Shown: positions 13,907 to 16,434 of the stretch, in pieces
Layout of the letters: every line of letters starts with the position of its first letter
Position numbering within the stretch: position 1 is the first letter of the stretch
Source of the DNA: a virus
Lineage: Duplodnaviria > Caudoviricetes
Length of the DNA: 64,000 nt
Virus record (IMG/VR): IMGVR_UViG_3300043567_000723
Reading direction: 5' to 3' (one strand)
The notes under the pieces: generated by a model
The model's input: only the letters and a program-made list of their open reading frames with translations
Told to the model about the DNA's origin: nothing
The model's database searches: none
Translations under genes and position numbers: made by a program

Positions 13907-14941
13907 ATGGCCAAGGGTTTAGACGTCGGGACATCGTTTATCGTACTGGCTTCGGACAGCCTCGAACCGATCAGCTACACCAGCGACGATCAGGCTGAAT
14001 TTATCAATTACAAAGATTTTCGTGACGCGTTCTACGTGATTAAGCCCACTACGCCAGTGGCCACGAAGATGATCGAAAAGGGCCTGCAGGGCAAAGTCTT
14101 CGTCAAGGACAACGACGGTGCTTTTATTCTGCTGGGACAAGACGCTATTGATAAAGCCATCGAGCGCAACGAGTCGGCCAAGCGACCTATGTATCGCGGC
14201 GTTGTGAGCCCCAAGGAAAAAGAAGCCAAGCGCGTACTGGCGTTTATCCTCAAAGAAGTTGCTGGTAAAGCCACCGAGCCAGATGAGAAGCTCGTGTTCT
14301 GCATTCCGGCGCAGCCCGTGGACCAAGAAGACGACGACTTTGACGTTGGTTATCACGAAGACGTGGTCAAAGCAGTCTTGGCCGAACAGGGCTATACTGC
14401 GCGGGCTATTAACGAAGCCGAGGCGCTGTGCTACTCAGAGCTAGCCAACGATGACTACACGGGCATTGGGCTTTCGTGGGGCGCTGGCATGGTCAACGTG
14501 TGCGTGATGCTCAACGGCGAGCCGACTGTGCTGTTTTCGACCACGAAGTCTGGCGACTGGATTGATCGCATGACCGCCGTGGCGACAAACGAGCCAGACT
14601 CGGTTGTGCAGGCTGAGAAAGAGCAGGGCGAGTTCACGATTGGCGAGCCAAACGAGAACGTGATTCTGGCCGCTGTTAGCTCGTACTATGAGCGCCTTAT
14701 TGACTACACCACGAAGCAATTAGCGGCAGCGCTAAGCAATCACAAGGCGTTGCCGAAGTTCAAAGAGCCGATTTTGATAGCAATGGCGGGCGGCACGACT
14801 AAAGCCGCGGGCTTTGTGGAAATGTTCCGGCGCAAGCTCGAAGAGAATAATTTTCCGCTGCCAGTGAAAGAAGTCCGGCACGCCTACGACCCGCTGCACG
14901 CTGTCGCGCGTGGCTGTCTCATTGCTGCCAAGATTCTCTAA
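13907..14941 (+). CDS. Actin-like ATPase (MreB/ParM/FtsA superfamily)
   Basis: GLDVGTS (phosphate 1), INEAEA (connect 1), LSWGAGMVN (phosphate 2), MAGGTT (adenosine), DPLHAVARG (connect 2). Confidence 0.88.
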   Translation: MAKGLDVGTSFIVLASDSLEPISYTSDDQAEFINYKDFRDAFYVIKPTTPVATKMIEKGLQGKVFVKDNDGAFILLGQDAIDKAIERNESAKRPMYRGVVSPKEKEAKRVLAFILKEVAGKATEPDEKLVFCIPAQPVDQEDDDFDVGYHEDVVKAVLAEQGYTARAINEAEALCYSELANDDYTGIGLSWGAGMVNVCVMLNGEPTVLFSTTKSGDWIDRMTAVATNEPDSVVQAEKEQGEFTIGEPNENVILAAVSSYYERLIDYTTKQLAAALSNHKALPKFKEPILIAMAGGTTKAAGFVEMFRRKLEENNFPLPVKEVRHAYDPLHAVARGCLIAAKIL

Positions 14942-15041: not shown

Positions 15042-15500
15042 ATGGGTACACGCCAGCGTTTCGACGGAATTATCATTTCGCATCTCGGAAATATCGCTGG
15101 CCGGGTTCCAGAACGTGAAAATACGCTTAAATATCTGCAGGCGGCGTTGAAAGCTGGCTGGCACGTAATGGCAGACGTGCAGTTTATTAATGGCGCGTTT
15201 ATCTTGCCGAATGACAACGGTTTTAGTGCCGCCCCGCCCAGTTTCTTCTCGAATCAACGCGTCTGGTCCCGCTGCCAGAACGCCGAAACCATGGATGCGC
15301 TGTGCAACATTGGCGCGCATGCTTTTATTAATGCCGACGCGCCTTTGGTGTTAACAAGCGCGCAATTTATCTGGACGCTTCCGCCCCGCGAACTTTCTCC
15401 GCGCTCTATCGCGGTTTATCCAGAACTGGCCGAAGCTGATTGGCTCGAACAATATGAGCCAGCTGGCCTGTGCAGCAATGAACCGATGAACTACATTTAG
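15042..15500 (+). CDS. Glycerophosphodiester-phosphodiesterase-like protein, degenerate motifs
   Basis: IISHLGN...ENTLKYL..AL.AG..VMADV resembles iaHRG...ENT......G...vEiDV, with R>L and E>A. Confidence 0.6.
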   Translation: MGTRQRFDGIIISHLGNIAGRVPERENTLKYLQAALKAGWHVMADVQFINGAFILPNDNGFSAAPPSFFSNQRVWSRCQNAETMDALCNIGAHAFINADAPLVLTSAQFIWTLPPRELSPRSIAVYPELAEADWLEQYEPAGLCSNEPMNYI

Positions 15501-15601
15501 TTTTAGTTTGTTGTGTCATCGCGTTCTTTGACAATTTGGCGGCCTGTGCGCAATTCTGTACATCAGCTCGTTATGGGCGTACAGAGTTGTTAAAATTGAG
15601 G

Positions 15602-15822
15602 TGTGTCAAAAGTTAGTCGTGGTGGTCGACTGGTTAGGCGTTTCTTCTGCGGCATGGATGCGGCAGGGGTTACAGGTTCCGTGGTCAGATTTTGTCGGGC
15701 TCACGGGCGGAGGAGCAGCAAATGCCACACGGGATAATTTATATCCTTGAAAGTTGCTGCGGAACCGCGGCTTCGGCCGTGGTAGGGCCTGCGGACAGGG
15801 GATCGCAGGGGCTTTTGACACA
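15602..15822 (+). ncRNA. Candidate ~220-nt structured ncRNA containing an SRP-helix-8-like element
   Basis: 11-bp closing stem TGTGTCAAAAG/CTTTTGACACA followed by U-rich tract; cUUCGg hairpin 15765-15782; GTCGGG...AGCAGC symmetric-loop-like element 15694-15719. Confidence 0.45.
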
Positions 15823-15865
15823 TTTTGTTTGACGTAAGTGTATATCTTGCAGGCAGTTAGTAATT

Positions 15866-16222
15866 ATGAACGATGAATTTATTCATTCATTGTCCGTGCT
15901 TTTTAGCGCGTTTGGCGCAGCTGCTTTTGCTGGGCTGGCAACCCTTTTGCGGTTTGCCAAGAAGTTATCTAAACTAGCAGTGGTCAGCGCAATGTTGAAC
16001 GCCGGATTTCTGGGGCTCGCCATTGCGTTGATTTGGTATCAGAATTATCGGAAAGCCGAAAACGTCTATGGGCTGATCGGCATTTGCGTGCTGGCGGGCA
16101 TGGGCGGCTCGACGCTGACAGATCTGGCGATTTCGTTATTGTCAGGCGCGGGTATCAAAGTAACCATTGTGCACGAACGCGATCGACAAGGAGATCACGA
16201 GCATGACAATGACGAATCGTAA
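15866..16222 (+). CDS. Holin-like three-TM membrane protein
   Basis: Three hydrophobic helices and a charged C-terminus. Confidence 0.5.
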   Translation: MNDEFIHSLSVLFSAFGAAAFAGLATLLRFAKKLSKLAVVSAMLNAGFLGLAIALIWYQNYRKAENVYGLIGICVLAGMGGSTLTDLAISLLSGAGIKVTIVHERDRQGDHEHDNDES

Positions 16223-16352
16223 ACAATTGAGTGTAGCGGCGTGGGGCGCATCAGCAGTATTCTGTGTGCTGCTTCTTGTTTCTGCGCTCTCGGCTGTTTC
16301 GCACAGCATCGGTAGCCACGTCGATATGCCAACTATCTCAACACATCCTTGA
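16203..16352 (+). CDS. Small membrane/secreted peptide, 49 aa
   Basis: Basic N-terminus plus hydrophobic core; SD GGAG upstream of ATG 16203. Confidence 0.45.
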   Translation: MTMTNRKQLSVAAWGASAVFCVLLLVSALSAVSHSIGSHVDMPTISTHP

Positions 16353-16358
16353 CATTTA

Positions 16359-16434
16359 TGCCTGATAGCTCAGTTGGTAGAGCAGGCGACTGTTAATCGC
16401 CGGGTCGTAGGTTCAAGTCCTACTCAGGCAGCCA
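16359..16434 (+). tRNA. trnN: tRNA-Asn (anticodon GTT) with encoded CCA
   Basis: Acceptor TGCCTGA/TCAGGCA, D arm GCTC/GAGC, anticodon arm GGCGA-CTGTTAA-TCGCC, T arm GTAGG-TTCAAGT-CCTAC, G73, CCA. Confidence 0.97.

Follow-up and report, generated by a model that had tools for sequence, protein, structure and literature searches.

A pseudoknotted structured RNA precedes a three-transmembrane-helix protein gene in a clade of lake phages and possibly answers to CsrA

The 64,000-nt stretch of phage DNA analysed here (hereafter the window) carries a real, intricately folded non-coding RNA of about 220 nt on its + strand, at positions 15603-15822, as confirmed by covariation in 44 homologues. The original prediction, made from the single sequence, had placed a structured RNA of ~220 nt at 15602-15830 and was right on this point. 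The fold of this RNA, its novelty and its position as a leader are well supported. More tentatively, with a probability of roughly 0.4, we propose that it is a CsrA-responsive leader controlling the membrane-protein gene that follows it, both the binding of CsrA and the direction of control being putative and read from sequence.

The window belongs to an IMG/VR virus record of 157.5 kb that is rated 77% complete and has nearly all its genes on the + strand. The relatives of this phage are uncultured phages of ~200 kb. The window stretch itself occurs in public runs from lake-water and freshwater metagenomes, all of them DNA; no RNA run is listed among the public sequencing runs holding the structured-RNA stretch. 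The locus is organized as follows.

13907-14941, + strand: gene of an actin-like ATPase (Pfam Volactin PF25216, E = 1e-61)
ending at 15500: upstream gene of 152 aa, flanking the RNA on its 5' side
15556-15584, + strand: hairpin CTGTAC...GTACAG, directly before the promoter and overlapping its -35 position
15588-15596, + strand: candidate extended -10 promoter TGTTAAAAT (TG-n-TAAAAT), with a predicted start near 15603
15603-15822, + strand: structured RNA of ~220 nt, P1-P7 and a pseudoknot (237 bits with covariance model R1)
15823-15865, + strand: spacer from P1 to the start codon, non-conserved, U-rich in the window copy
15866-16222, + strand: gene of a 118-aa protein that has three TM helices and a charged tail at its C-terminus (holin-like in its topology only)
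16359-16434: tRNA-Asn, 3' of the 118-aa gene that starts at 15866 (ARAGORN)

Two genes, that of the actin-like protein nearby and that of the membrane protein, were used to gather relatives. A full-length homologue of the region is present at 114 loci, which give 45 distinct sequences, 44 of which were aligned (alignments A1 and A2). The Volactin-type actin gene itself is widespread in this phage group, with 237 relatives in the viral contig collection, RNA-less clades included.

Folded alone, the segment 15595-15835 (+) reaches -99.9 kcal/mol, against -80.1 +/- 4.3 for its shuffled versions (z = -4.6), and it beats all 200 shuffles. From the homologues, RNAalifold proposed 60 pairs and found compensatory changes at 44 of these. 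The final model (P1 to P7 plus the pseudoknot) was curated by hand and counted on alignment A2 (44 sequences): 94.7% of its cells are paired, against 30-45% when the partners are slid, and both-sided changes occur at 48 of the 66 pairs, a number that none of 500 shuffles matched. The covariation score, 0.50, compares with 0.25 for the shuffles, again with none of 500 as high. When 56 distinct sequences are aligned by the model, 60 of the 241 columns are invariant, of which 37 are unpaired. Three G-U pairs (U15-G213, G196-U205 and G133-U149) would become A-C mismatches on the opposite strand, which assigns the RNA to the + strand. A coding function of the region was rejected, as no reading frame is kept across the RNA versions and their length differences are not multiples of 3. 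The elements of the fold are listed below.

15603-15614 with 15810-15821, + strand: P1, closing helix of 12 pairs (10 Watson-Crick and 2 G-U)
15615-15631, + strand: P2, hairpin AGTCG/CGACT, 100% paired
15622-15625 with 15725-15728, + strand: pseudoknot of 4 bp, GUGG of the P2 loop with CCAC in the P5 internal loop, 100% paired
15632-15638, + strand: J2/3, GGUUAGG, an invariant single-stranded junction
15652-15661, + strand: P3 tip, GCAUGGAUGC, stem of 3 bp capped by an NGGA tetraloop, candidate CsrA-type site
15679-15706, + strand: P4, with the invariant internal loop GGUCAG ... G.CG.G, 99% of cells paired
15707-15714, + strand: J4/5, GCGGAGGA, GG-N-GG invariant
15715-15760, + strand: P5, GCAGCAA with UUGCUGC, enclosing P5a and carrying AGCAG and the pseudoknot strand CCAC
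15731-15747, + strand: P5a, compensatory at 4 of 5 pairs
15765-15782, + strand: P6, UUCG-capped hairpin of variable sequence, both-sided changes at 7 of 7 pairs
15788-15809, + strand: P7, CCTGCG/CGCAGG, abutting the 3' strand of P1, 100% paired, 4 compensatory pairs

Most of the stems that had been drawn from the single sequence are real. Indeed, the 11-bp closing stem corresponds to P1, where both-sided changes are found at 10 of the 12 pairs and 98.1% of the cells are paired, the cUUCGg hairpin and the CCTGCG/CGCAGG stem reappear, with compensatory changes, as P6 and P7, and TAGTCG/CGACTG is kept as P2 in the form AGTCG/CGACT. The GGTTCC/GGAACC stem is not confirmed, its 63.9% of paired cells being equal to the shuffle mean. 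P5 is compensatory at 6 of its 7 pairs and 100% paired, and the changes in P4 go from U-A to C-G and from C-G to U-A. The pseudoknot varies in the same manner: one of its pairs is U-A in 29 sequences, U-G in 9 and C-G in 5, with zero mismatches, and another is G-C in 40, G-U in 2 and A-U in 1. Between the helices, the GGUUAG of J2/3 does not vary within the protein-anchored set of 44, and 72 of 72 versions have it. P3 consists of a variable lower stem beneath an invariant tip, and the P7 loop GACAGGGGAU contains GGGGAUC, a second GGA loop, which is invariant in 44 of the 44 versions of the unbiased set.

The segment 15681-15728 had been read as resembling SRP helix 8, in which case the RNA would be a mimic or decoy of SRP domain IV that binds Ffh. 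We give this reading virtually no credence. What favoured it was a local likeness in one sequence (UCAG ... AGCAG), together with the adjoining membrane-protein gene, which is indeed there as the 118-aa three-TM gene directly downstream. However, the helix-8-like pairing does not covary beyond shuffles (85.4% paired in both cases, 2 compensatory pairs against 1.8), and AGCAG, supposed to be an unpaired symmetric loop, is the 5' strand of the covarying P5 and varies in the homologues (AGCGG, AGUAG, AGCAA) jointly with its partner strand. The CCAC that was to close the element is occupied by the pseudoknot, its best partner being the P2 loop, without any mismatch, whereas it makes 3 mismatches with the GUGG of the putative helix 8. 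A GNRA cap is absent from 15681-15728 and the key A is a G there, as the prediction itself conceded. The resemblance to domain IV (helix 8) of the bacterial SRP RNA (4.5S) is superficial, the bases of its "loop" being paired in other covarying helices, and a false lead can be removed: the computational tests speak against a phage SRP mimic at 15603-15822.

The covariance models agree with this conclusion. The Rfam check proposed at the outset against SRP, 6S and tmRNA returned no match, even at a relaxed E<=10: SRP models gave none at the gathering score over the 64-kb window and none at E<=10 on 15450-15900 (451 nt) with permissive filters, and on the latter segment the 6S, tmRNA, RNase P, riboswitch and ribozyme models gave none at E<=10 either. 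At the gathering score and at E<=10, the Rfam matches were just the tRNA-Asn and one meaningless lncRNA (E = 8.7); ARAGORN likewise reported the tRNA-Asn alone, and no tmRNA. The 6S-like alternative, for which the 6S model had no match at E<=10, also disagrees with the shape of the RNA, a multi-helix junction unlike a rod with a central bubble. The strings AAGUU/GGCUU and GGAGGA presumably recall the P4 and CR-I elements of RNase P; this likeness was dropped, as no RNase P model matched and the strands form P1 and not a pseudoknot. The fallback of an unrelated ncRNA turns out to be the correct one.

For the family searches we built a covariance model (R1). It finds one copy and no second on the phage's own record and none in three related records of 117-211 kb (G001-G003). 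The 38 loci examined from more distant relatives with the Volactin-type actin gene are likewise without a match. A pattern defined on the RNA only reached 91 viral contigs, with 23 of the 23 new loci checked being true matches, and a second pattern reached 31 metagenome contigs, 31 of 31 true. Among genomes representing 185,579 species, one genome each, the pattern picked out 40 stretches, of which R1 placed none in the family, its only hit being an 8.7-bit fragment (E = 0.58). The family was not found in the bacterial and archaeal genomes scanned, and blastn with the RNA region gave 0 matches in the GenBank phage collection. In total, viral and lake metagenome contigs yield 72 distinct full-length RNAs, each scoring at least 165 bits. 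As judged from these sequence searches, its members all belong to a single clade of ~200-kb lake phages. The family is uncatalogued, although its kind (a structured regulatory leader or a phage ncRNA) is already known; few phage RNAs this large with such clear covariation fall outside every catalogued family.

How is this RNA transcribed? In most of the 44 aligned relatives an extended -10 element (TGnTAAAAT, TGTTAAACT or TTGTATAAT) lies 6-8 nt before P1. The hairpin that precedes it is kept at that place in most relatives with a different sequence, TTATCCGCC...GGCGGATAA or CTACCGA...TCGGTAG for example (read by eye), and a kept position with a varying sequence is what is expected for a terminator of the upstream gene, which the hairpin at 15556-15584 probably is. 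A divergent subgroup (L196, L161, L190, L234, L169, L037, L209, L159 and L217) has an extra 5' hairpin before P1 and a promoter-like element, TTGCGC ... GATAAAT, ~25 nt further upstream.

On the 3' side, the U-rich tail noticed after P1 does exist in the window copy, which reads UUUUGUUUG there, and is not a property of the family: a run of at least 4 U follows P1 in 17 of 54 relatives, and at least 4 T per 6-nt window are found in 29 of 54. P1 is accordingly not a conserved intrinsic terminator. The spacer to the start codon measures 13-62 nt (median 34, 60 relatives), which is too short for a separate promoter, and read-through into the three-TM gene must then occur. A homologue of the 118-aa protein stands directly downstream in 66 of the 66 RNA versions with at least 300 nt of flank, a linkage that includes the RNAs found by the RNA-only pattern, independently of the protein. 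This constant gene, the short promoterless spacer and the inconsistent U run together indicate that the RNA, whatever else it does, must be the 5' leader of the gene, the co-transcription of the two being predicted. No sequestration of the start region is predicted, its mean unpaired probability being 0.49. A spacer motif, RGUUA, was considered as a mirror of the invariant GGUUAG and rejected, as the same A/U-rich strings precede other phage genes.

The 118-aa protein matches no Pfam or PHROG family, and the names given by the sources to its 270 homologues are almost always "hypothetical" and never informative; a role in lysis is putative. A small reading frame at 16167-16352 (+), MTMTNRKQLSVAAWGASAVFCVLLLVSAL..., whose ATG probably lies near 16203, overlaps the end of the three-TM gene in another frame. 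It encodes a basic N-terminus and one TM helix, the hydrophobic core of which is conserved in relatives, and its product might act together with the holin-like protein, as an antiholin or a spanin-like protein for instance. A hairpin after the three-TM gene was not counted as a terminator because it lies inside this conserved frame. One three-TM homologue (P0027) is on a 202,923-bp contig filed by NCBI under a Sphingorhabdus sp. genome bin; this either hints weakly at a host among the Sphingomonadales or is an artefact of the binning.

What points to CsrA is the tip of P3. The SELEX consensus of CsrA is RUACARGGAUGU with the GGA in a short hairpin loop (PMC7652899), and the phage P3 tip matches its core, ACARGGAUGU (PMC7652899). 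The tip is CA[G/U]GGANG in 70 of 72 versions and CA[G/U]GGAUG in nearly all; in 12 of 56 it is ACAGGGAUGU, the exact SELEX core, with a 3-bp stem and a 4-nt loop. Alternatively, the GGGA tetraloop of P3 could take part in a tertiary contact between RNA segments. The GNRA-receptor form of this idea is weakened by the loops that start with U (UGGA), in 12 of 56 versions, which indicate that GGA is what is conserved, and not GNRA. The GGGGAUC of P7 is a partial, looser match to the CsrA consensus, and J4/5 contains GGA, a further candidate site, in 41 of 44 sequences by our own reading of the alignment. A GGA near the start codon or the Shine-Dalgarno sequence is absent from most spacers and present in the divergent subgroup only, where a GGA-containing GGGAGCC lies right at the ribosome-binding region of the three-TM gene. 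With no GGA on the ribosome-binding region in most relatives and a start that is not predicted to be sequestered, the classic layout of CsrA repression is missing. Across the window, CANGGATG is not enriched (8 found against 6 expected).

A CsrA homologue is encoded by the phages themselves. The family (PF02599, 50-72 bits, above the cut-off) is present in 7 of the 7 RNA-bearing records that are at least 96% complete, and three more contigs of 194-205 kb have csrA by tblastn, which brings the count to 10 of 10 near-complete RNA-bearing relatives. These proteins have 67-109 aa and a Lys-rich low-complexity C-terminal tail (L281, G004-G010, G013), and they also match the PHROG "CsrA-like regulator" (phrog_9500). 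One of them is mapped as follows.

1360-1650 of L281, - strand: csrA, 96 aa, beginning MLVLSRK... and keeping ...VRGEL...

In the two complete relatives compared, the distance from the RNA to csrA, which lies downstream, is ~73 kb. The record of the window (77% complete) yielded no csrA, which fits, because the expected position is beyond the end of that record. The RNA-less records G001-G003, rated 61-85% complete, are devoid of csrA and of the three-TM gene as well. Shared ancestry by itself may account for finding the RNA, the gene and csrA together.

In the CsrA-responsive leader that we propose, the extended -10 promoter, just past the probable terminator hairpin, would start the transcript at ~15603, and the first ~220 nt would collapse into a compact seven-helix domain in which P7 abuts P1 and the 4-bp pseudoknot locks the P2 loop onto P5. 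The transcript would then run on, via the short non-conserved spacer, into the three-TM holin-like gene. The fold would present two invariant GGA hairpin loops, the P3 tip with its high-affinity CsrA consensus and the P7 loop, and a CsrA dimer binding both would thereby set the amount of membrane protein. The likely partner is the CsrA of the phage itself, whose gene complete relatives carry ~73 kb downstream, host CsrA being possible too. Control could be exerted through mRNA stability, through read-through past P1 or through ribosome access, and would couple the production of the membrane protein to the stage of infection.

There are precedents for such an arrangement. In the structured moaA leader of E. 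coli, CsrA binds within a riboswitch aptamer, and the flhDC leader is protected by CsrA (PMC7652899). It also represses cel, the lysis gene of ColE7, so that there is already one mobile element whose lysis gene is under CsrA (PMC2896534). The phage RNA shares with the leaders bound by CsrA/RsmE (moaA, flhDC, cel) the 5' leader position, a structured domain upstream and GGA in short hairpin loops. It differs from the moaA, flhDC and cel leaders in that it is unrelated in sequence, has a much larger and more conserved fold, mostly lacks a site on the ribosome-binding region, and would answer to a regulator that is phage-encoded. Furthermore, 60 invariant positions and a pseudoknot far exceed what docking CsrA needs, which hints at a demanding job: the RNA probably does more, for example by sensing a ligand or by acting stably in trans.

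An autonomous stable ncRNA, whose transcript would end or be cut at P1, accumulate and act in trans, is an unlikely but serious alternative to the CsrA-responsive leader. Stable RNAs usually have their ends locked in a helix, and here both ends are held in the 12-bp P1; the T-rich windows just after P1 in 29 of 54 relatives (UUUUGUUUG in the window copy) and the GGA loops would also suit it. It might then be a CsrA decoy of the McaS or RsmZ type or, in the manner of the ornate phage RNAs, form a particle of RNA alone or of RNA and protein. However, the U tract is not conserved, and the spacer of 13-62 nt leaves no promoter room before the downstream gene, so that read-through is needed. Like CsrB, RsmZ and McaS, the phage RNA is led by a promoter of its own and shows GGA in its hairpin loops, and it could bind one CsrA dimer; unlike them, it offers two or three candidate sites instead of the many repeats of the known sponges, has a complex conserved tertiary fold and precedes a gene without a promoter of its own. 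GOLLD, ROOL and the raiA-motif RNAs are large "ornate" RNAs of unknown function, often found in phages or prophages and often near tRNA genes. They resemble the phage RNA in being phage-borne or lake-derived and heavily structured, with pseudoknots and many invariant unpaired positions, but the latter matches no Rfam model, is strictly tied to one downstream gene, and is much smaller than GOLLD and ROOL.

The 37 invariant unpaired positions, together with the size, the multi-helix junction and the pseudoknot, also recall large aptamers, and strict placement before one gene would be natural for a riboswitch-like leader responding, independently of CsrA, to a small molecule, an ion or some other signal in the cell. 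We hold such a leader to be rather improbable, because no conserved expression platform was found (the spacer is variable, the start predicted to be unsequestered, the terminator-like tail inconsistent), no Rfam riboswitch model matches, and the RNA serves one gene family in one phage clade only, while riboswitch classes usually control several gene types. The same wealth of invariant unpaired nucleotides and the pseudoknot could be those of a catalytic RNA, self-cleaving or of another kind, by which the transcript is processed. This is a far-fetched explanation for an RNA larger than the small self-cleaving classes, in which we saw no conserved cleavage-site context and which no known ribozyme model matches.

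If the CsrA link is true, the phage carries a global RNA-binding regulator together with a purpose-built structured target before a holin-like gene, which provides a testable model of post-transcriptional timing in jumbo phages. A bolder and rather doubtful extension would make the pseudoknotted leader a new class of viral riboregulator, a dedicated target of phage CsrA that times the holin-like protein and possibly senses a second signal; it would amount to a self-contained RNA-protein clock for lysis or for the envelope in a jumbo phage. If the CsrA link fails, the RNA is an orphan structured RNA that is worth solving and probing.

Elsewhere in the window, the segment 12094-12345 (+) contains a hairpin, CACCAC-ACUUGGAUAGCC-GUGGUG, with GGA in its loop. 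It has no obvious similarity to the RNA at 15603-15822 and, judging by this loop, might be another CsrA target.
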